A stretch of 19,843 bases of DNA, from IMG/VR virus record IMGVR_UViG_2724679236_000005, positions 1-19,843 of that record; one strand, given 5' to 3'. The notes under the pieces were generated by a model. It searched no databases. It worked only from the letters and a program-made list of their open reading frames with translations, and was not told the DNA's origin. Position numbers and translations under genes: made by a program. The DNA comes from a virus (lineage: Duplodnaviria > Heunggongvirae > Uroviricota > Caudoviricetes). This document shows positions 1,688 to 16,242 of this stretch, in pieces (within the stretch, counting starts at the first letter, position 1; each line of letters begins with the position of its first letter).

Positions 1688-2200
1688 TTAATATACATGG
1701 AGAATACGAGCAACGCCCGCAAGAACGTCAACACCATTAATTACTCGTTTCATTTTTGCAGGATGAATCTCGTAAATAATTTTTCCATTTTGAACTCGTT
1801 TATAATAGCTCGGCGCAATCGTTACTGATTGCCCAACTGCTGATTTTGAATCAGTCCCCTGCGCGTCATCAGTAATCGCCGTAATAAGCCCCTCATATGT
1901 ATCAATACGTTCAAAATTGACACCGTAATTGTCAGTATATGCACTTCGAATTTCGAACCTTGTTTTAGCACCTGGTATTAATCCAAAATACCCCATCACA
2001 CCAGAATCGGAGCCAGAGACTTTAAAACTGGCTGACATTTTCTCCATTCCCCCGTCCAGAGTGATAGCTGTATCCATAGCGCCCGTCTTAAAATCATCTT
2101 CGATTATTTTCATATCGACGGGAGTGTATTCAGTGCAATTTAAAACTCGTTCTCCCTGGACGAACAACGCAAATGCACGATAGGTGTTACTATCTGCCAT
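1688..2200 (-). CDS. Contractile tail tube protein (P2 FII-like)
   Basis: 170 aa; C-terminal segment YYKRVQNGKIIYEIHPAKMKRVINGVDV resembles the P2 FII C-terminus as recalled; immediately downstream of the sheath gene. Confidence 0.85.
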   Translation of the reverse strand: MADSNTYRAFALFVQGERVLNCTEYTPVDMKIIEDDFKTGAMDTAITLDGGMEKMSASFKVSGSDSGVMGYFGLIPGAKTRFEIRSAYTDNYGVNFERIDTYEGLITAITDDAQGTDSKSAVGQSVTIAPSYYKRVQNGKIIYEIHPAKMKRVINGVDVLAGVARILHVY

Positions 2201-2217: not shown

Positions 2218-3717
2218 TTAGACTGTTTCTTTAAAAAGAGGGGCCAGAGCTTCAACTGTGTAATCATTATTAATGCGGTACATTAACGTAATTGTTTGTG
2301 CCGGGGATTTCGGTCCAAAGTCAACATTAATATAAAGATTACCAGCGGCCAGACTTTCTTTTGTATTTAACTCTTCATCTAACCACGCCCGTCCTCCGTT
2401 AATCGCGCCCTGCTCCTCTAATTTATGCAGATACGCGTTTATCGACTCTACAACGTCTGTTCCGAGGTGCAGGTCTATCGGGCGATCAATAAAATCGGTC
2501 ATCATTGCCCGGGCTATTGAATCTTCAATTACGTCAGCTGTCCGACGAACGCACTCGAAAGACCATTGAGGGCTGAGGCTGCACAGATAGTTACCCCAGT
2601 GCCTAAACCCGTCATAGCGAATAATTGTGCTGACCTGGCTGGCGTTCAACAGGTTCGCTGTGCAGTTTGTCTCACCAATAATAAAATCGTCGACTTGTTC
2701 AAGCCCTGTAACTCCGTAGATATTCTGGTTCGATTTACTCCACCAGAATCCTTTTTCATTATCAATTCTGGCTCGCAAACCAGCAGCGATAGCTGAATAC
2801 GGACGAGATAACCCACTGACATCACTCGTAGAATAAACGCGAGGGCGTAAAATTTCCATCCTGGCGCCATATCTCTGACGACGATTAACAACGTCTGTGG
2901 GTGTAGCGCCTCGCGGTGAATCTATATACCCAACACCGCGTAATTTATTTGTCACGACCTCAAGTTGTTCGGCAATATAATCGTTGGCGCTATAATCAGG
3001 AGCGATTAAAATTCTCGGCGTTACTTGATTTATTTGCGCAGACGTCAATAATGCGTTAATTCCGGTAACGACATTTTTCCTCATTTTTGTTTCGTCGCTG
3101 TCTTCTTCAACGCGAACCACAACAATAATGGCGTCTTCCTGATTTAGTATTTCAGATACAGCAGGCGGGAGGGTACCGTACCACCCGAGCAACTCAGATT
3201 TTTTTTTGCTTCCTGCGATTACCGTCGGAATATTGCATGGGAAAGACTCATCTTTACCACCTGATAAATTTGTTGGAGGAAGGGCGAATACAGTACCCGT
3301 TCCTGCGTGATCACCACCGAAAGTGACATTAATAGATTCTCCCAGTGGAAGACCTTCTTTATATTGCTGATTTTGATCAGCCAGTTTTGACGGTGTAGTC
3401 GCGCCGTCTGTTGTCAATGTTAATTTTCTCGAACCATCGGGTAGCGTGCTATATCCTGGAGTGGCTACACTCCCGTTAATGCCGACATTGACGATTTCGA
3501 CAATCCAGTTGTTTCCGTCGGCCCCTGGCATCACTGTTGAAAACTCAACGAGATTATCTGCGAGTTCTGAACCCCATAATAGAAACGATCTGGCGGCGAT
3601 GCTGGCGTCGGGCGCTGTGCCAACAACACCGATTACTGACACGTCGACGGTGGAAATTTCTTTTGTGCCGTCGTCGTATTCAAGCGTGCGCGGACCGTGC
3701 AAAAAATTAGTGCTCAT
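2218..3717 (-). CDS. Contractile tail sheath protein (P2 FI-like)
   Basis: 499 aa; motifs AAGLRARIDNEKGFWW and IIRYDGFRHWGN match conserved P2 FI sheath segments as recalled; ATG at 3717 with weak SD. Confidence 0.9.
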   Translation of the reverse strand: MSTNFLHGPRTLEYDDGTKEISTVDVSVIGVVGTAPDASIAARSFLLWGSELADNLVEFSTVMPGADGNNWIVEIVNVGINGSVATPGYSTLPDGSRKLTLTTDGATTPSKLADQNQQYKEGLPLGESINVTFGGDHAGTGTVFALPPTNLSGGKDESFPCNIPTVIAGSKKKSELLGWYGTLPPAVSEILNQEDAIIVVVRVEEDSDETKMRKNVVTGINALLTSAQINQVTPRILIAPDYSANDYIAEQLEVVTNKLRGVGYIDSPRGATPTDVVNRRQRYGARMEILRPRVYSTSDVSGLSRPYSAIAAGLRARIDNEKGFWWSKSNQNIYGVTGLEQVDDFIIGETNCTANLLNASQVSTIIRYDGFRHWGNYLCSLSPQWSFECVRRTADVIEDSIARAMMTDFIDRPIDLHLGTDVVESINAYLHKLEEQGAINGGRAWLDEELNTKESLAAGNLYINVDFGPKSPAQTITLMYRINNDYTVEALAPLFKETV

Positions 3718-3728: not shown

Positions 3729-4910
3729 TCAATTAGTTATGCGCCCGTCTGTAACGGTGCCGTAAATGCCACTTTTGGCGTTCTGGAAAACCTGCGCCCC
3801 GTATTTTTCAATGTCTTTCAGATTGGACGTAAATATAACGTCATTATCTATTCCGTCAATATTACACACAACGCAGATATAATCATGCTCATATGAGTTA
3901 AGGGTTCCGTGTTTTTTTGGATAATAAGGTTCCCTTATATTTAGCATTTTTGATATATCCCCGATTGGAATTCGCTGCGCCATCACCAGAGCATCTCCGC
4001 TCGTTGCCGCTAGTGTCATCCATGCGCCGCACAAATAGGTTTCAACATTGGCGTTGACACTGGTTGGGCTTATCGCGTAAGGGGACGCATCGTAACCCGT
4101 CACGATGGCCATCGCAGGAACAACACTGATGTTGTCACCACCATATAACACGACGAGATTAAACGCCCCGTCCCCGTTTGGTTTTGCAAAACCGGAACTA
4201 GTGTTTACATTTCCCGCCGCATCAGGTTGTATATTATTTACTGTGAGAACCGGTTTTGTGCCATTTATATTATTTATATCACCATCAATTTCTAAAAATT
4301 TATTATCCACCTCATCTTTTTTATAATAGTTATTTAAATCAACGCCGAGATTTTCCCGACTGGCCTGTTGCGCCGCCGCGCCTTTATTTTTAATTTCAGA
4401 TAAATTTTTGTTTATCTGCAAATAACGCTTATCGGCATCAGCCTGACTCATTCCACTACTGTTATCAATAACGACATTAACCGTAGACGTGCTGGACACC
4501 GCGAGAGTGTATTTATACGTGATTGATATCAGTGCACCGTTGCTATTCGTCGGTTTTAAAATATCCGGCGAACGCGCAACTGAATATAATTCGCCTTTAT
4601 CGGTTAATATCCCCACCTCGCGGATAGTATAACCGCCGGTTTCCGGCGGTACGTACAGTGTAAAAATGACCTGATTACCGCTATTTTCTGACGATTTAAT
4701 ATTTCCGCGATATGTCTCGTGAATTAATGCTGTTCGTGCCGGGTCCGGTGTTACGTCGTCGTTTCCGTTTGCGTCGCCAATAACGAATTTATTCAGCACC
4801 ACGGGTACACCCGATGCCAGCGCAGCGGCTTCAAGTTGCGCCCCCCGGTCTGTCAGTACCGCATAAACCTGGCTCGCGCTCGCTTTCAGATTTGATTTTA
4901 ATTTAGCCAT
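3729..4910 (-). CDS. Tail fibre protein with P2 gpH-like N-terminal baseplate-attachment domain
   Basis: 393 aa; N-terminal LIHETYRGN...VPPETGGYTIREVGILTDKGELYSVA resembles the P2 H N-terminus; Asn/Ser/Thr-rich middle; C-terminal region not recognisable. Overlaps gpI stop by 8 nt. Confidence 0.8.
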   Translation of the reverse strand: MAKLKSNLKASASQVYAVLTDRGAQLEAAALASGVPVVLNKFVIGDANGNDDVTPDPARTALIHETYRGNIKSSENSGNQVIFTLYVPPETGGYTIREVGILTDKGELYSVARSPDILKPTNSNGALISITYKYTLAVSSTSTVNVVIDNSSGMSQADADKRYLQINKNLSEIKNKGAAAQQASRENLGVDLNNYYKKDEVDNKFLEIDGDINNINGTKPVLTVNNIQPDAAGNVNTSSGFAKPNGDGAFNLVVLYGGDNISVVPAMAIVTGYDASPYAISPTSVNANVETYLCGAWMTLAATSGDALVMAQRIPIGDISKMLNIREPYYPKKHGTLNSYEHDYICVVCNIDGIDNDVIFTSNLKDIEKYGAQVFQNAKSGIYGTVTDGRITN

Positions 4911-5529
4911 TAGGTCCTATCTCCACTAACAAACTCACAATTGGCGAGCCTGATATATATAGCCCGCCGTTAATTTTTACACCGCCGTCGCCGTCTGCTG
5001 GGATATTTACGCCTATTTTTGCGTAAGCTGCACCAGCGATATAGAATTCACCGTCAACACTTGTTTCGAAATTTATTTCTTTTAATAAGGAACGACAGTT
5101 TTTTGCATCAAATATTTGTGCAATAAACGTGTTCAATAGTTCTAAATCTAATCCCATGTTTTTTAGCAAGTATATTTTAATTGCGAACGTATACGGGTCA
5201 TCCCTGGGCGTGGCCTCAAACCACTCCCGCATTTTGCTCTCAAACCCTACCGTTAATAACGCGCGTTCGACGGCACCACGCGTTCCACGGTGTTTGTTTT
5301 GCCACGCCGCTGCTTTGATAATTTCGCGTTTTTGCTGCTCGCTCCAGTCCGGGTTCCAGTACGTAACTGCATATTCCCATGCCAGCCACGGCAGCAGATT
5401 TGCAGGGCACAAATCGGGATTCTTAATAATTCGAATATCGCCAGGCAGATCGCCGACGTGAGATAAAACAACTTCCAGCGCTCTCTCGGGGGTTATTGCG
5501 TTCGGAGGCAGTACGCTTTGACTTGTCAT
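4903..5529 (-). CDS. Baseplate/tail protein (P2 gpI-like)
   Basis: 208 aa; motif NPDLCPANLLPWLAWEYAV matches the conserved gpI motif NPDTCPANLLPWLAWA as recalled. Confidence 0.85.
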   Translation of the reverse strand: MTSQSVLPPNAITPERALEVVLSHVGDLPGDIRIIKNPDLCPANLLPWLAWEYAVTYWNPDWSEQQKREIIKAAAWQNKHRGTRGAVERALLTVGFESKMREWFEATPRDDPYTFAIKIYLLKNMGLDLELLNTFIAQIFDAKNCRSLLKEINFETSVDGEFYIAGAAYAKIGVNIPADGDGGVKINGGLYISGSPIVSLLVEIGPNG

Positions 5530-5531
5530 GG

Positions 5532-6452
5532 CTACCCCATTTGCACGCTGAGTTTGATTCCTGTGCAGTGCGGAGCCTGTCCAACGCCAGCAATCACGTC
5601 CTCTGTTGGCGATATCAGAATCACACGCTCAGTGCCGTCACGGTGTATCGCGTCGTAAATTCCTGACAGAGCTGCTGTTGCTCCGATTTTATGCTGCGTG
5701 GCCACGTATATAGCTAAATCGCTCTGAGCACCGTTAAGCAAAACGTTCTGGTCGGGTCCAAGCCCAGCTACGATAACGGCCTCAACCCGGTAATTCAGGT
5801 TCGACGCGGGTTTTACAGTCACGAAATCAGTCAGCGGTCGAGTATCGTCAGGAGACAGGGCCGCATTCACTGTATTCAGTAGTGATTGCGGAGGTGCACC
5901 GTCGCCTGTTCGGGACAAAACGTACATATCGACGTACCCTGGTTGTGTCACCGGCGGTCCGTATGCCTGAGCTGACAGAACGTCGGGATCACTCGATAGC
6001 GCGAAATAGTTATACGCGTTTGTACTGCCAGCAGTATTCCGCGCGTACCACGATAGCTGTATGCGATGACGATACTCGTCGTCACTCTCGTAAACCGCCT
6101 CAGTCGGGGGAATCGCATCACGATTAGCTGGCGTTATCAACAGCCGCAGGCAGTCAAAATTAGCGCCAATCTGGTCGAGGTCCCCCTCTTTTGCAAACGC
6201 GAGTAATACCGCGAGCATCCCCTGATTTACCCGCGCTGTAATGATAATTTCTCTGTATGCAACTATTTCCAGCAGTTTAACGGCCGGGTCTGACTCCAGG
6301 AGTGCGTTAAATTGTGGATATAATATCTGCAGCTCTGACAGTAGATTAGATTTAACATCTGAAAATAGCGGGGTTTTAACAAACGTGGGCGGCGGCAGCA
6401 GACTCATATCAATAGTTTTCACTATCGAATTCTGAACTGTTGATGTTATCAA
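5532..6452 (-). CDS. Baseplate assembly protein (P2 gpJ-like)
   Basis: 306 aa; N-terminal region aligns with P2 J as recalled. The track start is TTG at 6452, overlapping the gpW stop (TTGA); first ATG is codon 16, so the start is uncertain. Confidence 0.85.
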   Translation of the reverse strand: MITSTVQNSIVKTIDMSLLPPPTFVKTPLFSDVKSNLLSELQILYPQFNALLESDPAVKLLEIVAYREIIITARVNQGMLAVLLAFAKEGDLDQIGANFDCLRLLITPANRDAIPPTEAVYESDDEYRHRIQLSWYARNTAGSTNAYNYFALSSDPDVLSAQAYGPPVTQPGYVDMYVLSRTGDGAPPQSLLNTVNAALSPDDTRPLTDFVTVKPASNLNYRVEAVIVAGLGPDQNVLLNGAQSDLAIYVATQHKIGATAALSGIYDAIHRDGTERVILISPTEDVIAGVGQAPHCTGIKLSVQMG

Positions 6453-6790
6453 AATATCAGCTCCATATTATTAAACTCTAATCGCTGTTGTGTTTCGATA
6501 TCTGTTGCGATAATTAATATTGTTATTTTCCCGACATCCACTGCTAACACATTTATTCTGTCAATTCTGACGCGTGGTTCCCAGCGAGCTATTGCGCCAG
6601 CGCTTTCCATGATTATTCGCATAGCAAGCGACGGATCTGTGGGATTATCAACAAGATCAAATAATTTGCTGCCATATTCTGGCAACATTACACGCGTCCC
6701 CAGCGGGGTCGTTAAAATATCAACGATAGACTGACGAATGTGATCAGTCCCCGATAAAGGCTTACCGGTGTTACGGTCCATTCCAAGCAT
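6449..6790 (-). CDS. Baseplate wedge protein (P2 gpW / T4 gp25-like)
   Basis: 113 aa; MLGMDRNTGKPLSGTDHIRQSIVDILTTPLGTRVMLPEYGS aligns closely with the P2 gpW N-terminus as recalled. Confidence 0.9.
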   Translation of the reverse strand: MLGMDRNTGKPLSGTDHIRQSIVDILTTPLGTRVMLPEYGSKLFDLVDNPTDPSLAMRIIMESAGAIARWEPRVRIDRINVLAVDVGKITILIIATDIETQQRLEFNNMELIF

Positions 6791-6792
6791 AT

Positions 6793-7695
6793 TTACGCCA
6801 TTGGTTGGTTCGGTTGTTGTGTTTCCCCATCAGGACATGTGTGAGTGTGTCCGTTGTACGTTGTGCGGACCTCAGTTATTGTGCCTTGTCGGTCCTGCAC
6901 CTCTTGCCCTGCTAACACACTACCGCGAGTTGTGATATTACCTGTTCCACCGTTATCTCCAGTGACAGAAATATCGTTGCGGAATGTCGCCAGTTTATCA
7001 ACAACCAGCGTTTCTGTTATATGCGTTGGACCTGCTAGCGTTATCCCGCCGGGCGCTAATGCTCTTATTGTTTCTGCCGTCAGCGATATACTATTCGCGG
7101 CGGTAACATTTACTGAACTTGTTGCTATTACGTTCACTAAATCAGCGTGCGCGTTAATTGTATCTGTCGCTGTCACGTTAATAACGTCAGCGTCTGCGTT
7201 AATTAATTTTCCGCCGTGAATATTGACAACGTTTTCACTTGTGACCGTAACGTCTGCGCGACCCAAAATTTCTATTTTGGATTCGCCGAGAATTTTTACA
7301 ATTCCTTCTGGTACTCCTTGCCAGATGAGAGTGTGGTTTTCTGTGTTATAGGTTAGCGTTGCGCCGTCACAATATGCGGTGACGTGGTCGTGAGGGTCAG
7401 TACTGGGCGGTGCTTTGTTGTCAATATGTAATCCGAGCATGACGACGCCATTTCGCGTATCTCCCCCCTCAGAAACAACAGTGACTGGGTCGCCAACAGA
7501 TGGGGCGCTCCAGTCCACGCGCTCCGATGTCGCGTGCGTGAACCATTGTAGCCAGCCCGATTGGTGTTCTCCACCAAACGACACGCGACATCTTGGAGGA
7601 TTCATCTGAACTGCAGCTATGGTGCCGCGTTTAACGGAGTCACGCAGCCGGCGAGCGTTCTCCGCGGAGGCGTATTCATCGTCCGATTGGGCCAT
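6793..7695 (-). CDS. Baseplate spike/hub protein (P2 gpV-like)
   Basis: 300 aa; N-terminal CRVSFGGEHQSGWLQWFTHATSERVDWSAPSVGDPV aligns with P2 V; long beta-helix-like repeat region; C-terminal GHTHTCPDG resembles the His-rich spike apex. Confidence 0.85.
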   Translation of the reverse strand: MAQSDDEYASAENARRLRDSVKRGTIAAVQMNPPRCRVSFGGEHQSGWLQWFTHATSERVDWSAPSVGDPVTVVSEGGDTRNGVVMLGLHIDNKAPPSTDPHDHVTAYCDGATLTYNTENHTLIWQGVPEGIVKILGESKIEILGRADVTVTSENVVNIHGGKLINADADVINVTATDTINAHADLVNVIATSSVNVTAANSISLTAETIRALAPGGITLAGPTHITETLVVDKLATFRNDISVTGDNGGTGNITTRGSVLAGQEVQDRQGTITEVRTTYNGHTHTCPDGETQQPNQPMA

Positions 7696-8212
7696 AGTAG
7701 TCGCTCTCGTGTTCTGCGCCGATATCTGGCGCTATTCCGACGTATATATTTTTCAGGGTTCCCTGTGAGGGATAATCGAAAATATCGGGACCAACGCCGA
7801 TAACTTGCGTGAACGACACGCACTGAACTGAATGCGAACCGACTGACTGCCCGTTTTTAATCCAGTCACACGGTTCCGCGTCGCTGAATTTTGCCGGTTT
7901 AGTTCCGGGACCGAACATTCGCCCATTAATCCAGCTCGTCATATAGAGCGCTGCATTTTGCGATTTCAGTCCGTACTGATCAGCTGCAAACTCTCGCAAC
8001 AAATACAAATTACACGACAGCTCGACTGACTGAATTGAGCTTGCAACCGCTTCGTCACTCTGTGACCAGTTGCTGATTTCCAGGAACAGAGCTGGCGTTT
8101 CAAATCCAGCCGGAATTTCTGGATAAATACCGAATGTTTTGATGAACGGTATTTGTAAAACCGCGCCTTTAACGCGATCAAGATATTCGTCAAATGCATC
8201 CAGTCCGCTCAT
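7676..8212 (-). CDS. Hypothetical tail-associated protein (position of a tail completion protein)
   Basis: 178-aa ORF, ATG at 8212 overlapping the upstream stop (ATGA), immediately upstream of gpV; no family recognised by eye. Confidence 0.3.
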   Translation of the reverse strand: MSGLDAFDEYLDRVKGAVLQIPFIKTFGIYPEIPAGFETPALFLEISNWSQSDEAVASSIQSVELSCNLYLLREFAADQYGLKSQNAALYMTSWINGRMFGPGTKPAKFSDAEPCDWIKNGQSVGSHSVQCVSFTQVIGVGPDIFDYPSQGTLKNIYVGIAPDIGAEHESDYYGPIGR

Positions 8213-8889
8213 AATCGTTTCCCTGTTTTTGGGTCTACGTGGACATTACCTTTCACGCGACCACGCAAGTCCTGTTCAAAAAAACCCATGAACACGGTGC
8301 CAATGTTTTCAAAAATATAATCATCGATAGCATCCTCCAGCGCTTCGTGCACCGGTACGCGAGCCTCTTCGATTCCTCCGCGAGCCAGTCGAATCCAGAC
8401 ACTTTTCGCACCGTAGTGTTTCGCTACGAATGAATCGGGCCAGCTCAGCATCGACAGCCCTGCACTTTTGGGTGTAAAAGTTGCCCCTCGAGCGCCTTTT
8501 TTTGTTTTCAAAAATTGACCGGTCTCTGGATTGCGAGGCTGCTTCTGCTTCCTGGGATTTTGTAATCGCCCCTTTAGCTCAGATACACGGAAATCGTTCA
8601 GGCCGTACCAGAGTTTTACGCTACTCAGATCTCCTGCCCCTTCTTTTGTAAAATCGCGGCGCTTAATGAACGGTTTGATTCGTTTATCTACGGCCTTATG
8701 ATTTTTAGCTGCCAGTGCAGTCAAAATCATTCCTGCTGAAATTCGGTGCATATGTTTTGCAGTTCGGTTCAGCGCCCTGTTGTATGCCATTAACATTTGA
8801 TGTTGCGTCGCGCTGATTTCGACTCTGAGCTGCTCCAGCGCCGAAACATCGATATCGAACATCTGCGCGTTACTACGTAAATCGGCCAC
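8209..8889 (-). CDS. Hypothetical virion morphogenesis / tail completion protein (weak resemblance to lambda gpZ)
   Basis: 226 aa; GTG start at 8889 with SD AAGGGGG 4-5 nt upstream (alternative ATG at codon 10); basic-rich, sits right after the FII-like gene where lambda carries Z. Confidence 0.35.
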   Translation of the reverse strand: MADLRSNAQMFDIDVSALEQLRVEISATQHQMLMAYNRALNRTAKHMHRISAGMILTALAAKNHKAVDKRIKPFIKRRDFTKEGAGDLSSVKLWYGLNDFRVSELKGRLQNPRKQKQPRNPETGQFLKTKKGARGATFTPKSAGLSMLSWPDSFVAKHYGAKSVWIRLARGGIEEARVPVHEALEDAIDDYIFENIGTVFMGFFEQDLRGRVKGNVHVDPKTGKRL

Positions 8890-8919
8890 GGTTCCCCCTT
8901 AGTAGGACCGCGGTCCCAC

Positions 8920-9300
8920 TTAGTATTTTGAATACTCGCTGTTTTCGCTGGACGTATGAGGCTCTAAAAAAATATTCGTGAGCCCGACACCGTCTGGCTG
9001 AGACTCTTTAACCACGTAATCGGTCCAGCCAGACCAGGTAACAGAGCCGTCAGGTTCGATGCTGCGCTGCTTTGGAACCCGGACGACGTCACGCGCAACA
9101 ATGCCGGCGACGTCGTCTGAGAGCGCTGTCAGGCTCGTTACTGTACCGGTAATAAAACCAGCGTGAGGAACGTCAACGCGCGCGTAAGGCTCGTTGAAAA
9201 TAGCGATAATGGGGTCGGTTTTACCGCGTAATTTAACGGGCCGTCCCCACTCCAGAATCATCTCCTCATCGCCGGCCCGGAGGTCATCGTAGTAGCTCAT
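8920..9300 (-). CDS. Head-tail joining protein (lambda gpFII-like)
   Basis: 126 aa; moderate similarity to lambda FII in the central and C-terminal segments as recalled; follows the FI-like gene with an ATGA overlap. Confidence 0.6.
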   Translation of the reverse strand: MSYYDDLRAGDEEMILEWGRPVKLRGKTDPIIAIFNEPYARVDVPHAGFITGTVTSLTALSDDVAGIVARDVVRVPKQRSIEPDGSVTWSGWTDYVVKESQPDGVGLTNIFLEPHTSSENSEYSKY

Positions 9301-9710
9301 AGAGCGTAAACGTGATCAGCTGCGATGAGGTCTGCAACCTCTGGTGAATCAACAACAATTTCACGGCCAGCGGCAACAATCTCGCGAACGCGACGCCCGT
9401 TCACGTAGTGATATACATCCAGCGTGTTACGCAGCTTAACGCGGCGCGTAGCGGGAGACAGTTCTGGTTGTGACGTCGTGCTCGCGATTGACGGTTGTTC
9501 TGCGCTGTCATCATCAGTTTCATCTGATGCGTTCGCATTAATGTTGGCATCACTCGCGTCACCGGATTGCTCGTTCAAAATATCGAGCTCTGACTCAGCG
9601 CCAGCGACGATTGATTCCAGTTCAGCAATAGTCCCGCTGCGCGGTAATTCGCGACCGAGCTGAGCGCTCAGATCGTCAATGCGCGCCAGCAATTCTGTTT
9701 TTGTGCTCAT
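9297..9710 (-). CDS. DNA packaging protein (lambda gpFI-like)
   Basis: 137 aa; N-terminus MSTKTELLARIDDLSAQLGRELPRSGTIAELESIV resembles lambda FI MTKDELIARLRSLGEQLNRDVSLTGTKEELALRV; acidic Ser/Asp-rich linker; SD AAGGAAG upstream. Confidence 0.7.
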   Translation of the reverse strand: MSTKTELLARIDDLSAQLGRELPRSGTIAELESIVAGAESELDILNEQSGDASDANINANASDETDDDSAEQPSIASTTSQPELSPATRRVKLRNTLDVYHYVNGRRVREIVAAGREIVVDSPEVADLIAADHVYAL

Positions 9711-9721
9711 GTTGCTTCCTT

Positions 9722-9746
9722 AACAAAAAAGAGCCTTTCGGCTCTT
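9722..9746 (-). terminator. Intrinsic terminator-like hairpin just after the major capsid gene
   Basis: Minus-strand RNA UAAGAGCC-GAAA-GGCUCUU followed by UUUUUUG: 7-bp stem, GNRA loop, U-tract; the stem includes the capsid stop codon. Confidence 0.6.
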
Positions 9747-10779
9747 ACGCGATTTTTACGACAACGAACGCGTCGGCATCCGTGAGGACCATTGCTGGCG
9801 CGGATTGCGTCATTGTTTGCGTCACTGCCGGATCGCCAGTAGTGGTCCAGACTTTTGGATAGCGCGTCGCTTCGCTGATACCCTCTTTCAGCGCGTCCTC
9901 GTCCTGGATCGCGCCGTAGGTGCGGAGTCCGCGATTTTTTGTGTTGCCCAGGATCATCGTGTTATCCGGCATATAACGCGTTTCAGTGCCTGTTACCGGG
10001 TCGATGTACTGCCCCTTATAGACGAACAGCGCCGTGTCGCCGTAATACCCTTTAAAGCTCACAACGTCGCCCAGGTTTTTCAGCGCGACTTCGAGCTGGC
10101 TGTTTGAGCCGCGGCGCGTATCCAGTGCCGTCCAGAATTTTTTAAAGCGTTTAAGCTGCTTCCAGGCTTTACCGTCCATGATGATCACGTTAACAGCACC
10201 GGAGGCGAGGTCTGCATAGGATTCGATATCGTCGCTCGGGTCATACGTTTCCGCGTCCTGCGTAGACCAGGCTGTCGAACCAGACTGAGTGACGTTATTC
10301 GTCGCGCTGCGGCTCATGTCGATCTCATAGGTCTCGATATTGCTGCCGGAAACTGTGTATTTACCGTACAGAACCGCCTGCACAGCCTGAAATTCTTCGA
10401 GCTGACTGATACTGAGCTCCTCATCAAGCAGGTTCTGCATGATGATTTTTGCACGACGTTCGACCGGTGTTTCCGGCTGGCCAATCTGCTCTCCGGCGGC
10501 GCGCTTGATGCTCATATTCGGATTGATCGTGTGTTTGGGTTTCGTGTAACCCGGCTTAAAATGGTTAGTTGAATAGCCGCGGGTGCGATCTACTTTGCCG
10601 GTGATCATCGGCGCGCAATACACCGCCATATTGACCTTACCCGGGATTTTATCCAGAAAAACCTCTTCGCTCGTAAACGTGTAGGTCTCACGGAAAAACA
10701 GTCTTAAAAACAACGGATTGAACTTAAATACCTGCTGTGTCGCGGTAATCAATTCTGACGTAGTAAACGAATCGCTCAT
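9745..10779 (-). CDS. Major capsid protein (lambda gpE-like)
   Basis: 344 aa; extensive similarity to lambda E as recalled (FKFNPLFLRLFFRETYTFT, PGYTKPKHTINP, RRAKIIMQNLLDEEL, TRYPKVWTTTGDPA). Confidence 0.95.
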   Translation of the reverse strand: MSDSFTTSELITATQQVFKFNPLFLRLFFRETYTFTSEEVFLDKIPGKVNMAVYCAPMITGKVDRTRGYSTNHFKPGYTKPKHTINPNMSIKRAAGEQIGQPETPVERRAKIIMQNLLDEELSISQLEEFQAVQAVLYGKYTVSGSNIETYEIDMSRSATNNVTQSGSTAWSTQDAETYDPSDDIESYADLASGAVNVIIMDGKAWKQLKRFKKFWTALDTRRGSNSQLEVALKNLGDVVSFKGYYGDTALFVYKGQYIDPVTGTETRYMPDNTMILGNTKNRGLRTYGAIQDEDALKEGISEATRYPKVWTTTGDPAVTQTMTQSAPAMVLTDADAFVVVKIA

Positions 10780-10837: not shown

Positions 10838-11167
10838 TCAGCCGACGCTGACAGGCGTACCAGCAAACGCTGATTTGCGTTTAGCTACGTCGGTAACCGT
10901 ACCCCAGTTAATCGCCGTGTAACGGAACGAGCCTGATTTATAGTACGAGCAGTCTGCAGAACTGGAGCCAGTATTAACTGCGGTGGCAGTGAGGCCAATA
11001 GCTTTACCGACTGAGCCGTCCCAAACCTTAAACGTCCCGACAGTAGCGTCGAGCATAATCGGTGTCAGCCGGGGTACGTTGATCCCGCCCTGAAAATGAC
11101 CGACGGTCGTAACAACAAGATCGGGTCCCAGAATAAAATCATCCGGGCTATACGTTTCTGTGGTCAT
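10838..11167 (-). CDS. Head decoration protein (lambda gpD-like)
   Basis: 109 aa; LTPIMLDAT...FKVWDG...YYKSGSFRY...KRKSAFAGTPVSV mirrors lambda D motifs as recalled. Confidence 0.9.
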   Translation of the reverse strand: MTTETYSPDDFILGPDLVVTTVGHFQGGINVPRLTPIMLDATVGTFKVWDGSVGKAIGLTATAVNTGSSSADCSYYKSGSFRYTAINWGTVTDVAKRKSAFAGTPVSVG

Positions 11168-11574
11168 TATTCATCCCCTAAAATTGAACGCCCTGCAGCA
11201 ACCAGCATCGAGACGTTTGCGGCTGTTCCTGTTGCCGTGGTGCTGCCGGCATCCTGAATAGTTTCCGGTGATTCAGTGCTCATGAGTGTATCGAGCGCCG
11301 TTTCTGTCCGCGCCTGCGCTGTTTGCGGTGCTGCCGCGAGGACCACCTGCGCCTGCTCGAGCGTCATCCCGGGGACGCCAGCGAGCGCTTTTGCCTGCGC
11401 CTCGCGCCCAACAGCTTCGGGACAGTTGATGATGGCCATCACGCGTGCCAGTTCGCTCGATGCGGCGTCCGCGCGAATCTGCTCCGCTTTGGACTCAACC
11501 GGCGCGGCCGTAGTCGTAGCCGCGGTTTGTTCTGTGGTCGTGGTCTCCGCCGTGGTTTCTGTTGTACCTGGCAT
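11167..11574 (-). CDS. Putative nested in-frame scaffolding protein (lambda Nu3-like internal start within gpC)
   Basis: In-frame ATG at 11574-11572 (MPGTTETTAETTTT...) preceded by GGAG 7 nt upstream, at the position where lambda Nu3 starts inside C; sits at a Thr-rich linker. Confidence 0.45.
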   Translation of the reverse strand: MPGTTETTAETTTTEQTAATTTAAPVESKAEQIRADAASSELARVMAIINCPEAVGREAQAKALAGVPGMTLEQAQVVLAAAPQTAQARTETALDTLMSTESPETIQDAGSTTATGTAANVSMLVAAGRSILGDE

Positions 11575-12477
11575 AAATCGCTCCATTTTTGGTTTCAGTG
11601 CGTCGGCCATCACTGCGATAGCGTCCGCGTAATTAACGAGTTGATCAGCGAGACCAGATTTAATCGCGTCCGCGCCGATAAATACTGCGGCCTCTGTGGC
11701 CAGCACCCTGGATTTTTTCAGCCCGGTATAATCCGAGACTTTTTGCGCGAACTGCTCGCGTGTGCTGTTAATACTCAGCTGGAATTCGTCGCGAACGTCG
11801 TCGGGCAGCTGGGAATACGGGTTCCCGTCGACTTTGTGCGCGCCGGCGTAAATCAGCGTCACGTCAACGCCGGCAATCTCCAGCGCCTTTTCGACGCAGC
11901 GGTGAGCCATCAGGACACCGATTGAACCAACCGTGCCGGTCTGCGTTATCAGCCGGCGCGAACACGCTGACGCCAGCAAATAGGCGGCGCTGCAGGCCGT
12001 ATCGCTGGCCAGCGCCCACACCGGTTTTTGCTCTCGCGCCCGGGCGATTAAATCAGCGGTATCAAACGCGCCGGCGACCTCACCACCTGGGGAGTCAATA
12101 TCCAGCAAAATCCCCTTAACATCGGGATCAGAAATCGCCTGCTGCAGGCGTTTTACGATTCCGTCGTAACCGCTCATACCGCTAACCGGATTGATATAAC
12201 CCAATTTATGAACCAGTGTCCCGGTAACCGGCAGAACAGCTATACCACGCTCCACGCGGTACGATTTCTGACGTGTTCGCTCGCTGCTGTCCCACCCCAT
12301 CGCGAGGGCGTTCATTTCGTCGCTGTTCATTACCTCTCCAGACGCTGTATCAATCAGTCGCCCGGTACCGAACCGGTCGCTCAGCGCAGAAAAAAATACC
12401 CGCGCGTAGGCGGGCTCCAGCAAAAGCGGTTGATTGAACGCCCTGGCGGCGAGGTGCGGAAAATTGTTCCACGGCAT
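11167..12477 (-). CDS. Head maturation protease / scaffold fusion (lambda gpC-like, S49-type)
   Basis: 436 aa; aligns along its length with lambda C as recalled (NQPLLLEPAYARVFF, GIAVLPVTGTLV, KPVWALASD, GSIGVLMAH, YAGAHKVDGNPYSQLPDDVR, AIINCPEAVGREAQAKALAGVPGMT). Confidence 0.9.
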   Translation of the reverse strand: MPWNNFPHLAARAFNQPLLLEPAYARVFFSALSDRFGTGRLIDTASGEVMNSDEMNALAMGWDSSERTRQKSYRVERGIAVLPVTGTLVHKLGYINPVSGMSGYDGIVKRLQQAISDPDVKGILLDIDSPGGEVAGAFDTADLIARAREQKPVWALASDTACSAAYLLASACSRRLITQTGTVGSIGVLMAHRCVEKALEIAGVDVTLIYAGAHKVDGNPYSQLPDDVRDEFQLSINSTREQFAQKVSDYTGLKKSRVLATEAAVFIGADAIKSGLADQLVNYADAIAVMADALKPKMERFMPGTTETTAETTTTEQTAATTTAAPVESKAEQIRADAASSELARVMAIINCPEAVGREAQAKALAGVPGMTLEQAQVVLAAAPQTAQARTETALDTLMSTESPETIQDAGSTTATGTAANVSMLVAAGRSILGDE

Positions 12478-14051
12478 CAGTTACCTCCCCAGCCGTTATC
12501 GTTGGTATTTGAGGGGTGAGATACAGACCATGACGGTTCGCTCAGCCCCATTTCACGCCGGCGCTGAATTTCGTATTCCTGTTGCTCCATAACCTCCTCG
12601 TAATCCTGTCCCTGCAGCGCCAGTTCGTTCTGATACGTGCTGAGGCCAGTTGTGATACGCATTGCACTCTCCTGAACCTCTTTCAGTCCGTCGATGGCCA
12701 TGCGACCTGCACCGATCCAGAGCGCGTTCGTCCAGGAGTTCCGCGCTTCATAAAATGACCGGACAGCTGAGCGAGGCAGAGTGATAATCCCGCGCGCCAG
12801 CGCCTCCTCAAACCAGCAGCAGAACATCAGCGACGCCTGCCGCGCGGCGATAAAACGTCTGCGCCCCATAAAAAACCGCCAGCTCACGTTCGCGCTGGCC
12901 CGGGCGCTGGAGTAACTGACCTGGCTGTAGTCCCGGCTCAGTTCCTCGTATGACGCGCCGACGCCGGCGGCAACGTAACGCAGGAGTGATTTTTCCAGCG
13001 AACTGAAACCAGCGTCAGCGTTCTGAGCGGTCTGTAAACTGAGTTTGTCGCCGGGGTGCAGGTGAGGGACTTTCACGCCGCCTAATTTAATGTTTGCGCC
13101 GTTGTAGTACGTCACGTAACTCTGAATAAACGAATTCAGTGGGTTCGAGTCGATATCAGTACCCGCGCCGGCGATATATTCAAACGCCTGCTGACTGTCG
13201 AGCTCTGATTCGATTGTCGCGGCGTACATGGCCTTAACAATCGCGCTCTGCAGCTGTGTTTGCTGCAGTGTGTCGAGCATTTTCAGGCGCTCCATGACGC
13301 TGTAAAAAATATTGTCCCCGCGGGTCTGTCCGTCCTCGAGCGGCTCGAATATGTGGATGAATGCGTGTCTGCCGCTGCTGAGCTGTGCTGGGATACGCCG
13401 GCATTTACCGACTCCGCCGAGAGGGTAAGTATCCTCGGCTATCCAGTACCCGACCGCGGCCCCGTTTTTATCGATATCAACACCGGCGCGGCGAAATTGA
13501 GTGTCAGCTGCGTAACCCGGATTTCGAATCCGTTTCGGTGAGACCATTTTGAATCGCGTCCGAAAAACGCTGCCGGCACTACTCTCCCAGACTGGTTGTA
13601 CGCAGGTTTCACCGTTGAAAGCGTGAGTAGCCACGCCCTCGCGGATCATCATTGTGAACGTCCGTTTCCGCTCGATATCAATCGTGCAGTGAGGGTCCTC
13701 GGCGTATTCAGTCCACGCTACCTCGACGTCACGCGCCAGCGCCCTGGCGTCCTCGCGAGATATGCCGAGGTAACGCCAGTTAGGGCGATAACTCAACTTA
13801 AACAGATTGCCGACGATATGATCCTGGTGCAGTTGCACGGCGTTCGACGCGACGCCGTTATTGCGAACGAGATCGTCTGCTCGCGCGTTACCGCGATAAA
13901 AATTCGGCAACAGTGCTGCGTCGGCGCTCTGCTGTGGTGCGTTCCAGTCAATCAGCTGGCCACCGAAACCGGGACCGCCGCCGTTATACCCCGCGTAACG
14001 GCGTAGTGGCGTTTTACCGTCAGGCCCGAGCAGCTGCTGCGGAGCAGTCAT
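12477..14051 (-). CDS. Portal protein (lambda gpB-like)
   Basis: 524 aa; N-terminus LLGPDGKTPLRRYAGYNGGGPGFGGQL...AALLPNFYRGNARADDLVRNNG...QLHQDHIVG is near-colinear with lambda B as recalled. Confidence 0.95.
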   Translation of the reverse strand: MTAPQQLLGPDGKTPLRRYAGYNGGGPGFGGQLIDWNAPQQSADAALLPNFYRGNARADDLVRNNGVASNAVQLHQDHIVGNLFKLSYRPNWRYLGISREDARALARDVEVAWTEYAEDPHCTIDIERKRTFTMMIREGVATHAFNGETCVQPVWESSAGSVFRTRFKMVSPKRIRNPGYAADTQFRRAGVDIDKNGAAVGYWIAEDTYPLGGVGKCRRIPAQLSSGRHAFIHIFEPLEDGQTRGDNIFYSVMERLKMLDTLQQTQLQSAIVKAMYAATIESELDSQQAFEYIAGAGTDIDSNPLNSFIQSYVTYYNGANIKLGGVKVPHLHPGDKLSLQTAQNADAGFSSLEKSLLRYVAAGVGASYEELSRDYSQVSYSSARASANVSWRFFMGRRRFIAARQASLMFCCWFEEALARGIITLPRSAVRSFYEARNSWTNALWIGAGRMAIDGLKEVQESAMRITTGLSTYQNELALQGQDYEEVMEQQEYEIQRRREMGLSEPSWSVSHPSNTNDNGWGGN

Positions 14052-14281
14052 AATCGAACTCCCACGGGCCGACGGCGTCCCGTACTCAGACCGAGCTGTG
14101 ATTTCAGCTCGATAATGTACGTTCGGAGCTGCTCAATACTCGCCTGCGAGTATTGATAGCTCCGGTTATTTCCTGCTGAATCGCCGTGAGACAGCGACAC
14201 GGTCGATTTACCCGTTAATAATTTGTGCAGAGCGATTTCCGCTTCCAGCAGTCGTTCTGTTAAAACCTCGCGCGACGTCAT
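14048..14281 (-). CDS. Head-tail joining / head completion protein (lambda gpW-like)
   Basis: 77 aa; EAEIALHKLLTGK...LRTYIIELKSQLG...RRRPVG matches lambda W motifs (AAARAALHDLMTGK...KYIAELEVQTG...RRRGPAG) as recalled. Confidence 0.85.
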   Translation of the reverse strand: MTSREVLTERLLEAEIALHKLLTGKSTVSLSHGDSAGNNRSYQYSQASIEQLRTYIIELKSQLGLSTGRRRPVGVRL

Positions 14282-16242
14282 TAGCTCCCTCCGAGCATTC
14301 TGGCCATCTCCTCGAGAGACAGTTTGTTTTGTGATTTTTTCCGTTGCTCAGCGAGCGTCTCGAGATTGAGCTGAAAACGAATTTTACTGATACGCAGCGC
14401 CGCCAGTCCGTACACCCAGCAGTCGAGCGCTTCATTTCGCCGGCCCTGATTGTCCCAGCGATAAACGACGCGACCGTTAATGAGTTTTGGGATCAGAACT
14501 TCGGAGACGAGCTGTTTTGCCTCTGTCGTGCCGAATATTTCATCGTCATTGGGAAAATGAATTGCGCCCGGTGTCGCCGATTTAGGGTCGGGTTCCAGCG
14601 GCAGACGCATCGCGAGCAAATCTTTTGCCGTATCAGTACCGATTAACGATAAATAAACTTTATTCGCGTTACGGGTACGCGGCATATTTACGACCGGCTG
14701 GCCGTATGAGCTCGCGCCTTTGATCGGAATGACCCACAGCGGACCGAGTTTGAGCGAGCGGTTATAAACGACCTGCGCGTCTATACCACCGGTATCCCAC
14801 GCCCAACGACTGACGCCGATTGTGGTCCCGTCGCTGCGCTGGTATTGTTTACGAATCACTCCGTCGACGCGCTGCAGCGTGTCCTCCTCGTCGTAGCGAC
14901 CGAGGACGATTGTTTTATCAATCAGCCAACACTCCTCCTCAGATCCCCAGCCCCACACGTAACACTCGTAGCGCCCGGACGTCTGAGAGTCGATGCCGCC
15001 GGTTATATAAACAACACCGTCAGGAACCTGGCTGGCGTATTTTTCCCGGCGATTAACGAGAATATCGTGCTCCAGCTGCTCGCTGGCCACGTCGCTCCAG
15101 AGCTCGCCGAGCGTCGTGTTATGAAACGTTTTTTCTTTGAGTGGGTCGCCTTTCGCTTTCAGCCACTCGCTGACAATCTCGCCCCAGCCGTCGAGATTCA
15201 GTGAATACAGGGCGTTTATCACGATCGCCGCGTGTTTCGGCGCGCGAACGACACCACCGTCGTGATCAAAAAAATGAATACCGTCCCGCGTCCAGGTGCA
15301 GTCCTCTGCTATCCAGCGCCCCGCGAGCTCCATTTTTTCGAGATCGCGATAGTAAAAATGCTCCGGGCAGTGGCAGCACTGGTAATACGCGGACGACGAT
15401 CTCGCCTCATTTGTCTGCAGGCTGTTATCCCATTTGAGGCCATATTCGATGCCGTCGAAACCAAATACCAGGACCTGCTCCTCGCCACAATGCGGACACT
15501 TCAGGTAAAAACGAAACGTCAGATCGGCAGCGTCTTCGAGCATTTCTATATGGCTTTTACCGGTGACTGTCGGTGTCGAACCGAAAATTGCCTTCGGGTA
15601 CGCTGCCCCTTTAATTCGAACGAGCGCAAGCTCGATTGGCGAGCCCTCGCCTTTGCCTTTTTTGGCAACTTCCAGCGGCCAGCCGTCGACCTCGTCACCC
15701 TCGACAACCTGTTTCGTTAGTCGCCGGAAATTTCCTGGCGTACTCGCGCCGCGAAAATCAATAATCGCGCCGTTCATTTCTTTACGCTGGAGATTGTTAC
15801 GCTCGTTGCTTTTATCCCAGTCGGGGAAAATTTTCTGAATCACCGGCATTTCGGCGATAGCGGGGTCAACCTCGTCGGCGACAAATCCATCCGATTCGTC
15901 ATCGATAGGCTGATAGACCACGGCACTACGTTTTTTGTGCTCAGCGAAATAGAGCAGCGCCGCGACGAGTATTTTTGTATAACCGAGACGAGCTGATTTG
16001 CGAACAGACACTATTTTTATCGCGTCGTTTGTCATCATATTCAACATCACAATCTGGACCGGCTGAGTCGTCCAGTGACCCGCAATATGGCTGGAGCCTT
16101 CGGGGAGGTAAAAATATTTATCAGCCCACTCAACCCCCGTCATCGGTATCGTCACGCGCAAGGGATTCAACCCTGTCGAGATCGCGTTCGATATCGCTGA
16201 CATCGTAATCGCTGAAGTCGACTCGTATGTCTGCCAGTTCAT
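14281..16242 (-). CDS. Terminase large subunit (lambda gpA-like)
   Basis: 653 aa; VEWADKYFYLPEG, VRKSARLGYTK, EGSPIEL, GSTPTVTGKS, CPHCGEEQ are all colinear with lambda A motifs as recalled. Start uncertain: track start 16242 overlaps terS by 113 nt; in-frame Met codons also at 16203 and 16143. Confidence 0.95.
   Translation of the reverse strand: MNWQTYESTSAITMSAISNAISTGLNPLRVTIPMTGVEWADKYFYLPEGSSHIAGHWTTQPVQIVMLNMMTNDAIKIVSVRKSARLGYTKILVAALLYFAEHKKRSAVVYQPIDDESDGFVADEVDPAIAEMPVIQKIFPDWDKSNERNNLQRKEMNGAIIDFRGASTPGNFRRLTKQVVEGDEVDGWPLEVAKKGKGEGSPIELALVRIKGAAYPKAIFGSTPTVTGKSHIEMLEDAADLTFRFYLKCPHCGEEQVLVFGFDGIEYGLKWDNSLQTNEARSSSAYYQCCHCPEHFYYRDLEKMELAGRWIAEDCTWTRDGIHFFDHDGGVVRAPKHAAIVINALYSLNLDGWGEIVSEWLKAKGDPLKEKTFHNTTLGELWSDVASEQLEHDILVNRREKYASQVPDGVVYITGGIDSQTSGRYECYVWGWGSEEECWLIDKTIVLGRYDEEDTLQRVDGVIRKQYQRSDGTTIGVSRWAWDTGGIDAQVVYNRSLKLGPLWVIPIKGASSYGQPVVNMPRTRNANKVYLSLIGTDTAKDLLAMRLPLEPDPKSATPGAIHFPNDDEIFGTTEAKQLVSEVLIPKLINGRVVYRWDNQGRRNEALDCWVYGLAALRISKIRFQLNLETLAEQRKKSQNKLSLEEMARMLGGS

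Follow-up and report, generated by a model that had tools for sequence, protein, structure and literature searches.

To our knowledge, tail completion proteins and tail terminators are components of all long-tailed phages. Phage lambda, with its genes W, FII, Z and U, has the order FII-Z-U, and a beta-hairpin of lambda gpFII inserts into the gpU ring, where gpFII and gpU are in contact (PMC10721106). In P2, the adaptor gpL joins gpR directly, without an FII-type ring, and gpR is a hexameric terminator homologous to the collar of tailocins (bioRxiv 10.64898/2026.09.14.750843). The headless R2 pyocin of Pseudomonas aeruginosa (PA0615-PA0628) has the order collar-V-W-J-I-fibre-sheath-tube. We know of no FII-type or gpZ-type gene in R2 pyocin. 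Phages combining the lambda and P2 plans have already been published: the WO phages of Wolbachia and XfP1/XfP2 of Xylella are chimeras with lambda-like packaging and head and a P2-like baseplate and tail (PMC3235987). Another comparison is offered by the Iiscvirinae/Jilinvirus myophages, of which the jilinviruses behave as virulent phages (PMC11990801).

The window analysed here is a stretch of 19,843 nucleotides from a virus of the Caudoviricetes (positions 1 to 19,843 of IMG/VR record IMGVR_UViG_2724679236_000005). Its region 7676-9300 very probably represents the ordinary neck genes of a common E. coli prophage, a lambdoid myophage which joins a lambda-type head and connector to a contractile tail of the P2/R-pyocin type and belongs to an old and widespread lineage. 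Our analysis established the families and folds of the proteins, the order and conservation of the genes, and the linkage of head and tail. The hybrid type is already known and old, and the junction is not a new one; the only new element is the functional annotation of two 'hypothetical' neck proteins of 226 and 178 amino acids. According to the ORF listing of the window, all genes of the module, from head to tail, lie on the minus strand. The head and packaging genes are as follows.

16130..16696, minus strand: putative terS, assigned by position (705R4 ortholog annotated as small terminase subunit)
14281..16242, minus strand: terL of lambda gpA type (Pfam GpA_ATPase 1e-46, GpA_nuclease 3e-63; 43% identity to lambda A)
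14048..14281, minus strand: gpW-like head-tail adaptor, Ad1 (Pfam gpW 6e-16; 35% identity to lambda W)
12477..14051, minus strand: portal of the lambda family (Pfam Phage_portal_2 8e-91; 64% identity to lambda B)
11167..12477, minus strand: head protease/scaffold of lambda C type (Pfam Peptidase_S49 3e-38; 55% identity to lambda C)
10838..11167, minus strand: head decoration protein of D type (Pfam HDPD 3.6e-7; 38% identity to lambda D)
9745..10779, minus strand: major capsid protein of E type (Pfam Phage_cap_E 3e-60; 57% identity to lambda E)
9297..9710, minus strand: FI-like DNA packaging chaperone (Pfam Packaging_FI 2.6e-10; phrog_92 9e-31; 35% identity to lambda FI)
8920..9300, minus strand: FII-like head closure/stopper protein, Hc1 (Pfam Phage_attach 6e-9, 36.8 bits with a cut-off of 26; phrog_82 'head closure Hc1' 1.4e-22)

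The identities were obtained by BLASTP, with each window protein searched against the full protein sets of lambda and P2. All eight of the gpA, gpW, gpB, gpC, gpD, gpE, gpFI and gpFII families scored above the Pfam cut-offs, in lambda order. This bears out the initial annotation, which had described the head products as lambda-type and colinear with lambda from terS onward, although terS itself is assigned by position only; its product matched no Pfam model and, by BLASTP, lambda Nu1 only marginally (E = 0.012). Given the 113-nt overlap of its ORF with terS, the true start of terL is probably internal. The FII-like protein had no BLASTP match among the lambda and P2 proteins and was recognised by profiles only. 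At the DNA level, blastn matches to lambdoid phages cover approximately 9745-15027 of the window and stop at the 3' end of the capsid gene. In contrast to P2, the head, portal, terminase and adaptor are of lambda type: BLASTP revealed no match of a window protein to P2 Q, P, O, N, M or L. Peduoviridae are delimited by the P2 orthologs that they have in common, those of the subunits of the terminase, of portal gpQ, the scaffold, capsid gpN and completion protein gpL (bioRxiv 10.64898/2026.09.14.750843), and these orthologs were not found among the window proteins. To the left of the neck, the tail genes are as follows.

6793..7695, minus strand: baseplate spike of P2 V type (Pfam Phage_base_V 3e-12; TIGR01644 phage_P2_V 2e-28; 34% identity to P2 V)
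6449..6790, minus strand: baseplate wedge of W/gp25 type (Pfam GPW_gp25 1.4e-16; 37% identity to P2 W)
5532..6452, minus strand: baseplate protein J (Pfam Baseplate_J 9e-21; 40% identity to P2 J; PDB PA0618 2.4e-58)
4903..5529, minus strand: baseplate/tail protein I (Pfam Tail_P2_I 2e-37; 34% identity to P2 I)
3729..4910, minus strand: tail fibre with H-type N-terminus (Pfam Phage_tail_fib 4e-32; 34% identity to P2 H in the N-terminus)
2218..3717, minus strand: tail sheath (Pfam Phage_sheath_1 and Phage_sheath_1C; 36% identity to P2 FI; PDB pyocin sheath PA0622 1.8e-47)
1688..2200, minus strand: tail tube (Pfam Phage_tube 6e-22; 31% identity to P2 tube)
1394..1675, minus strand: tail assembly chaperone of P2 E type (Pfam Phage_TAC_7 1.7e-15)
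2..1285, minus strand: N-terminal part of the tape measure, ~430 aa (430-aa open frame continuing beyond the left window end)

The families V, W, J, I, H, sheath, tube and E and their order are common to the window and P2, with 31-40% identity, and the tail order of P2 type that had been proposed is thus supported by both Pfam and NCBIfam. The order collar-V-W-J-I-fibre-sheath-tube is likewise common to the window and the R2 pyocin, in which the sheath and J also have their best PDB sequence matches (PA0622 and PA0618, respectively). In contrast to lambda, the neck is followed by a baseplate and sheath rather than by a gpV tube. The initial annotation had named homology searches as the means by which its mosaic might turn out to be an artefact. 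These searches returned a lambda-type head and a P2-type tail and bear the observation out. The switch does lie between 9300 and 7695 as suggested, with lambda-type genes on one side, P2-type genes on the other and the ORF positions confirmed. Here the following features are found.

8890..8919, no strand: 30-nt gap separating the FII-like gene from the gpZ-like gene, the compositional boundary of the head and tail modules
8209..8889, minus strand: putative 226-aa tail completion protein (TCP/Neck1), a divergent candidate member of the lambda gpZ family, with a GTG start
7676..8212, minus strand: 178-aa tail terminator/collar of the R2 pyocin PA0615 family, with overlaps of 4 nt (upstream gene) and 20 nt (V)

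On sequence grounds, the 226-aa protein can be placed in the lambda gpZ/Neck1 tail-completion family, by an assignment that is transitive. The protein matched phrog_27 'tail completion or Neck1' over its full length (E = 1e-41), and its tblastn homologs are annotated as 'minor tail protein Z'. One homolog (P0050; 37% identity, E = 1e-27) has a precomputed PF06763 domain. Furthermore, PF06763 was matched by 2 of 18 close members of the family (best 2e-12), by gp23 of ECO1230-10 (2.5e-5, 24.6 bits with a cut-off of 23.9) and by gp59 of Valp1. The window protein itself gave no match to PF06763 (Minor_tail_Z), even at E <= 1, nor to any other Pfam or any NCBIfam model, and BLASTP found no lambda or P2 protein. 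Compared to lambda gpZ it is longer (226 vs 192 aa), and pairwise comparison of the two detects nothing. Alignment of the 226-aa family with the lambda Z family by hhalign yielded E = 0.006 over 137 colinear columns, at a low probability of ~6%, and was not significant against the single lambda Z sequence. Similarly, of 34 proteins of lambda and P2 scored with the family HMM, lambda Z came out on top, at a non-significant E = 0.046. Searches of PDB sequences with the protein (phmmer) and with its family profile (hmmsearch) returned noise only.

The AF2 model of the 226-aa protein (pLDDT 79) consists of a helix at 29-59, beta strands at 71-175 and a helix at 182-214. The gpZ-type TCP fold has a long N-terminal helix, an apical loop/beta domain and a long C-terminal helix (bioRxiv 10.1101/2024.12.10.627806), and the predicted model agrees with it. 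Foldseek found two matches to the model in BFVD (probability 1.0, E = 1.5e-6 and 4.6e-5) plus weak matches to the HK97 gp10 family, and no significant match to a solved structure in PDB. The gene lies between those of the FII-like protein (8920-9300) and the terminator (7676-8212), in the same FII-Z-U order as in lambda. As a member of the gpZ family, the protein would extend the colinearity with lambda one gene further, through Z. PGAP labels the protein hypothetical.

With its 178 aa, the second neck protein belongs to the family of the R2 pyocin collar PA0615 and is a tail terminator. The similarity to PA0615 emerged as the query was widened from the single sequence (E = 0.088) to a profile of 11 sequences (E = 5.5e-4) and to a profile of 71 sequences (E = 1.3e-32, with positions 1-171 aligned to 1-166 of 171). 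The protein has the tail terminator fold, a gpU-like alpha/beta sandwich common to lambda gpU and the Mu terminator, and PA0615 is its closest structure. With the fold of gpU, this terminator therefore occupies the position of lambda U. It matched no Pfam model (PF06141 Phage_tail_U included), no NCBIfam model and, by BLASTP, no lambda or P2 protein, while its family HMM gave a marginal 8.7 bits with lambda gpU. In contrast to lambda gpU, the window terminator is ~45 residues longer, does not belong to Phage_tail_U and has a contractile sheath to cap as well. By analogy with PA0615 and P2 gpR, the 178-aa protein would form a hexameric ring capping both tube and sheath. In the initial annotation neither neck protein could be clearly assigned; this still holds for Pfam, NCBIfam and BLASTP, whereas family searches now place one with gpZ/Neck1 and the other with the PA0615 terminator. 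As a separate observation, the 178-aa protein is hypothetical according to PGAP, and its family is listed under 'unknown function' in PHROGs.

Directly downstream of the 178-aa gene, with which the tail block of the window begins, lies the V spike gene, and the same collar-then-V order was found in L004-L011 and L014, wherever a downstream gene was present and annotated by Pfam. What lies upstream varies. Members of the collar family are preceded by a gpZ-like gene in phages but not in tailocin-like loci, and two collar-family loci (L014 and L012) have no gpZ-like or head gene directly upstream. Since the family also includes PA0615 of the headless pyocin, it is therefore not specific to lambda-type heads. 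In contrast to its pyocin relative, the window collar follows a gpZ-like gene and must dock a DNA-filled head.

Base composition changes at the gap between the FII-like and gpZ-like genes: GC3 is 0.49-0.65 from terL to FII and 0.33-0.50 from the 226-aa gene onward. Both neck genes are tail-assembly genes with the composition of the tail module, and the module boundary is therefore the gap at 8890-8919. This head/tail boundary is the same as in lambda itself. The gap separates the sole non-overlapping neighbour pair among the genes from FI to V. It contains a conserved inverted repeat with the palindrome GGACCGCGGTCC at 8905-8916, which is kept in 705R4 and L007, as well as the ribosome-binding site for the GTG start of the 226-aa gene. 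A promoter/terminator scan of the gap detected no promoter-like or terminator-like signal.

Several other readings of the two neck genes can be weighed against this one. The initial annotation presumed that the two proteins adapt the lambda-type head to the tail, and one might indeed regard them as novel, lineage-specific adaptors that fit a lambda-type connector to a myovirus tail at a mosaic junction. The missing matches to Pfam, NCBIfam, lambda and P2, and the labels given by PGAP (hypothetical) and PHROGs (unknown function, for the 178-aa family), would suit such adaptors. Yet this seems very improbable, as the 178-aa protein has a terminator fold and a sequence relative in PA0615, the 226-aa protein appears Neck1/gpZ-like, and the collar family also occurs without a lambda-type head in L014, L012 and the headless pyocin. 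Both products fall in universal neck classes (gpZ-like and terminator) and are standard neck parts, without a special adaptor role. Alternatively, the pair might represent P2 R and S, in which case everything from 8889 leftward is simply P2-type. In P2, R (the terminator) and S are located immediately ahead of the V operon; both window genes have the lower GC3 of the tail module; and the homology of gpR with the tailocin collar makes the 178-aa protein a functional counterpart of gpR. However, the families P2_Phage_GpR (PF06891) and Phage_tail_S (PF05069) recognise P2 R and S at ~1e-45 but match neither the window proteins nor their orthologs, and neither family HMMs nor hhalign gave a signal to P2 R or S. 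The order is also reversed: in the window the completion protein precedes the terminator, as in lambda Z-U, whereas in P2 the terminator R precedes S. Moreover, the lambda Z family includes relatives of the 226-aa protein. We consider identity with P2 R and S improbable, and rejected it on family membership and gene order.

The junction might also have arisen in E. coli by recent recombination of a lambdoid with a P2-like phage. In line with this, the head and tail halves differ in composition (GC/GC3 ~0.55/0.6 and ~0.45, respectively), and in the relative 705R4 the module is flanked by lambdoid early and late control genes. In contrast, the DNA of the head is only ~65% identical to that of lambdoid phages, no phage, P2 included, matches the tail at the DNA level, and protein identity to lambda or P2 is only 31-64%. 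The comparison of similarity breakpoints suggested in the initial annotation yielded no DNA breakpoint at 7676-9300: the junction is contiguous with 705R4 at 93% identity and with L007 at 67%, and the recent breakpoints, at 3720-4391 and 17366-18316, lie outside the neck. At least 80% of the window is carried by 442 E. coli genomes and the junction by 446, such that head and tail are linked in 442/446. The order Hc1-Z-terminator-V also occurs in ECO1230-10, Chris1, Valp1, L007 and L008, down to 22% identity in the latter, and the same architecture is found in Jilinvirus and in phages of Citrobacter, Vibrio, Pseudomonas and Burkholderia, as well as in metagenomic relatives. With lambda/P2 chimeras already in the literature (PMC3235987), the view of a recent mosaic junction has to be abandoned. 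Recent recombination at this site is extremely improbable, and was rejected on the DNA matches, the linkage and the positions of the breakpoints.

If the region is the neck of an old lineage of lambdoid myophages, its assembly might proceed as follows. The lambda-family portal, followed by a ring of the gpW-like adaptor and a ring of the gpFII-like stopper, would complete the head, while the P2-type baseplate tail would be topped by a ring of the 178-aa terminator. By analogy with gp51 of phage 80alpha, the 226-aa gpZ-type protein may reside inside the upper tail lumen, where it would touch the N-termini of the tape measure and later the DNA end. Head and tail would then join by docking of the FII-like ring, the predicted last head-side ring, onto its partner, the terminator ring. 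The contacts, the stoichiometry of the rings and the location of each protein in the virion, including the FII-terminator contact and the luminal site of the gpZ-like protein, are thus predictions for this phage, which we infer from the relatives described above. On a more novel reading, which we consider unlikely, an FII-type stopper docking on a PA0615-type collar, with a gpZ-type protein and a P2-type tape measure in a contractile tail, would be a joint shown by no solved structure so far. A comparison of collars that are preceded by a gpZ-like gene with those that are not could then pinpoint the residues for head acceptance and head type.

Among the closest counterparts are the Iiscvirinae/Jilinvirus myophages ECO1230-10, ep3 and HeidiAbel, together with Chris1, Valp1 and yong2, which have the same block of Hc1 (FII), Neck1 (Z-like), collar-family and V genes downstream of a lambda-family portal and terminase. 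Their collar-family proteins are 176-189 aa long. Yet identity to the window is only 28-37% for the Z-like and collar-family proteins, some of these phages have a fused protease-capsid gene where the window has separate C, D and E genes, and in Chris1, unlike the window, the sheath and tube lie ahead of the baseplate genes W, J and I. Wolbachia WO and Xylella XfP1/XfP2, from other hosts, resemble the window by their description (PMC3235987).

These results have little significance beyond annotation. Two proteins that are present in ~8% of complete E. coli genomes, and are 'hypothetical' in RefSeq/PGAP, can now be named, one as a putative tail completion protein of gpZ-like type and the other as a tail terminator/collar resembling PA0615. 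The collar family deserves a curated model, because PHROGs lists it as of unknown function and no Pfam or NCBIfam model matches. As a further illustration, FII, Z and the terminator move as one unit when a lambda-type head meets a contractile tail.

This prophage copy is probably defective, because its tape measure gene runs into IS-associated sequence, which is matched by window positions 1-56. The gene at the tape measure position in 705R4 encodes 546 aa and is annotated as a hypothetical protein. The C-terminal part of the tail fibre has been exchanged relative to 705R4, with the identity of the two fibres breaking at 3720-4391.

All long ORFs of the window lie on the minus strand (ORF listing), and Pfam recovered a complete lambda-type packaging and head gene set in lambda order, followed by two ORFs of 226 and 178 aa:

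14281-16242, minus strand: large terminase gpA (Pfam; BLASTP 43% identity to lambda)
14048-14281, minus strand: gpW (Pfam; BLASTP 35% identity to lambda)
12477-14051, minus strand: portal, lambda family (Pfam; BLASTP 64% identity to lambda)
11167-12477, minus strand: S49 protease C (Pfam; BLASTP 55% identity to lambda)
10838-11167, minus strand: decoration protein D (Pfam; BLASTP 38% identity to lambda)
9745-10779, minus strand: capsid E (Pfam; BLASTP 57% identity to lambda)
9297-9710, minus strand: FI (Pfam; BLASTP 35% identity to lambda)
8920-9300, minus strand: FII / Phage_attach (Pfam)
8209-8889, minus strand: 226-aa ORF, downstream of FII
7676-8212, minus strand: 178-aa ORF, downstream of the 226-aa ORF and before V

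The 178-aa ORF is followed by a P2-type tail set (Pfam, NCBIfam) of V, W/gp25, J, I, a fibre with an H-type N-terminus, sheath, tube and an E-type chaperone. BLASTP identities to P2 were 34% (V), 37% (W), 40% (J), 34% (I), 34% (H), 36% (sheath) and 31% (tube). The tape measure ORF continues past the left end of the window, and the putative small terminase (terS) is assigned by position only. The initial annotation was correct in the coordinates, sizes and order of the genes (ORF listing, Pfam, NCBIfam, BLASTP), and its lambda-type head (35-64% identity) and P2-type tail (31-40% identity) both stand.

The longest ORF of the large terminase gene terL (14281-16242) overlaps terS (16130-16696) by 113 nt. 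Since terL is annotated as 620 aa in vB_EcoM-705R4 (705R4), the closest phage record, its real start is probably an internal ATG. The sheath (2218-3717, 499 aa) can be aligned to P2 FI and pyocin PA0622 only at residues 3-38 and ~154-491, which points to an extra insertion of ~115 residues near the N-terminus. The lysis cassette (18537-19839) contains two holin-family genes, Phage_holin_8 (19288-19839) and Phage_holin_3_7 (19016-19288), and an endolysin whose sole Pfam match, a CHAP domain, is right at the cut-off.

The 178-aa protein was not identified by Pfam, NCBIfam or BLASTP against lambda and P2 proteins, and falls in phrog_1072, listed in PHROGs with function unknown. As a single sequence against PDB sequences, it gave one weak full-length match (E = 0.088) to PA0615, the collar of the R2 pyocin; a profile of 11 close homologs matched PA0615 at E = 5.5e-4. 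An exhaustive profile search yielded 123 cluster representatives of the family, nearly all 170-190 aa long. The 71-sequence profile made from these matched PA0615 end to end at E = 1.3e-32, a figure probably inflated by PA0615-like sequences inside the profile. On this evidence, we identify the 178-aa protein as the tail terminator, or collar, of the contractile tail. The neck of P2 is reported to consist of the portal gpQ (12 copies), the adaptor gpL (12) and the terminator gpR (6), with the tailocin collar homologous to gpR (bioRxiv 10.64898/2026.09.14.750843, 2026 preprint). In function, then, the 178-aa protein corresponds to gpR, but by sequence it belongs with the PA0615 family.

The 226-aa protein was likewise not identified by Pfam, NCBIfam or BLASTP against lambda and P2 proteins. 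In PHROGs it matched phrog_27, 'tail completion or Neck1 protein', at E = 1e-41. Homologs with 25-37% identity were found by tblastn in ECO1230-10, ep3, Arya, PPpW-3, Mica, phiRSP and Valp1, annotated as minor tail protein Z or Neck1. The Pfam family Minor_tail_Z (PF06763) does not reach the 226-aa protein itself; it matches two of 18 close family members (best 2e-12), Valp1 gp59 and, with a score that exceeds the gathering score, ECO1230-10 gp23. Compared profile to profile, the 226-aa family was colinear over 137 columns with an alignment of 24 lambda Z family sequences (E = 0.006, with low hhalign probability), and comparisons of the single lambda Z sequence with the family profile were not significant. 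In the AlphaFold model (pLDDT 79), a beta domain lies between long helices at the N- and C-termini. This architecture agrees with the one that the 80alpha neck study gives for tail completion proteins of the gpZ type; there, the protein is monomeric and lies within the neck lumen, touching the DNA end and the N-termini of the tape measure (bioRxiv 10.1101/2024.12.10.627806). Foldseek matched the model to no solved structure, and among predicted viral structures gave two probability-1.0 matches and several weak HK97 gp10-family matches. This transitive evidence leads us to assign the 226-aa protein to the gpZ family, as a divergent tail completion protein.

The two proteins had been called not clearly assignable, which holds for simple searches (Pfam, NCBIfam, BLASTP) but not for profiles. 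Their presumed role as special adaptors is not borne out, as both are standard neck components. What is new here is only that two proteins carrying the annotation 'hypothetical' can be given a functional name.

The gene order FII, Z-like, terminator is that of lambda, FII-Z-U, and differs from P2, where R (terminator) precedes S. Thus, by gene family, the lambda-like series extends through Z and the contractile-tail series begins at the collar. The compositional step lies one gene earlier, between FII and the 226-aa gene: GC3 is 0.49-0.65 from terL to FII, versus 0.33-0.50 from the 226-aa gene onward. Both gpZ and the terminator serve in tail assembly, which puts the functional head-tail boundary at the gap between FII and Z, exactly as in lambda. 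This 30-nt gap (8890-8919) is the sole non-overlap between neighbours among the genes FI to V; the 178-aa gene shares 4 nt with the 226-aa gene and 20 nt with V. A promoter/terminator scan found no such signal in the gap, and hence late transcription should pass straight through.

The gap contains a perfect palindrome, GGACCGCGGTCC (8905-8916), directly past the FII stop codon; 705R4 (GTGGGACCtcGGTCCCAC) and a 67%-identical locus retain the inverted repeat. Strong terminator-like hairpins with T runs occur on the minus strand just past D (10800-10819) and E (9729-9746). They may attenuate transcription or stabilise mRNA, and in this way adjust how much is made of these two head proteins, the most abundant ones.

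The neck assembly that we propose builds on the family membership, fold, gene order and conservation shown here; its stoichiometries and contacts are what we infer. The DNA-filled head would be completed on the lambda-family portal by a gpW-like 12-mer and an FII-like hexamer, while the tail would grow from a P2/pyocin-type baseplate. A hexamer of the 178-aa terminator would cap the tail and hold the sheath top, with the gpZ-like protein placed on the tape measure N-termini inside the lumen. Head and tail would then join by docking of the FII ring on the terminator ring. In lambda, gpFII docks on gpU by beta-hairpin insertion (PMC10721106).

The initial annotation placed a mosaic junction in this region. 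There is indeed a mosaic, but it is old and common and has been described before. Chimeric lambda/P2 phages have long been known, for example the Wolbachia WO phages and Xylella XfP1/XfP2 (PMC3235987). The block of FII-like head closure gene (Hc1), Z, collar and V follows lambda-family head genes in ECO1230-10 (Jilinvirus), Citrobacter Chris1, Vibrio Valp1 and two metagenomic relatives (62% and 22% identical). The head half shares ~65% identical DNA with many lambdoid phages, only at ~9745 to ~15027, and DNA matches of the tail half are limited to four near-identical records. The junction region is present in 446 of 5,426 complete E. coli genomes; in 442 of these 446 at least 80% of the whole window is present, and head and tail are linked. 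A comparison of similarity breakpoints with 705R4 showed unbroken 93% identity at 4392-17365, with breaks at 3720-4391 and 17366-18316 and none at the junction.

In two sampled loci with a collar-family gene (L012 and L014), the upstream genes are regulator-like or membrane/lysis-like. In L014 (1-12754), the collar-family gene directly follows a cI/LexA-type repressor, a lambda P-like gene and small membrane or lysis-like genes, with V, PAAR, W, J, I, fibre and a chaperone gene downstream. Head genes are absent within 4.5 kb upstream of its collar gene, and the layout is tailocin-like. The locus could encode an R-type tailocin, or belong to a phage whose genes are arranged differently.

The tail half has a single break relative to 705R4, at 3720-4391, where the tail fibre diverges over its C-terminal ~220 aa and a ~130-aa gene carried by relatives between fibre and sheath is absent. 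This looks like a typical receptor-binding cassette exchange. The low-GC (0.41-0.45) segment at 17366-18316, between the lysis genes and terS, is not shared with 705R4 and is possibly a moron; its plus-strand ORF 17580-17921 has a weak match to the Lar restriction alleviation protein that does not reach the Pfam cut-off (E = 1.4e-5).

The window ends (1-57 and 19787-19843) are exact inverted copies of each other, and match sequence beside transposase or 'integrase core domain' genes in many E. coli plasmids and chromosomes. The prophage fragment thus appears to have the same IS end at its left and right borders. With its tape measure gene truncated at the left end, this copy is probably defective; alternatively, the contig merely breaks at IS repeats. 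Lastly, ~40 nt of the head protease gene (11793-11832) match at 97.5% inside an annotated CRISPR array beside queE in E. coli Tig207 (NZ_CM196106.1), which suggests a spacer against this phage group.
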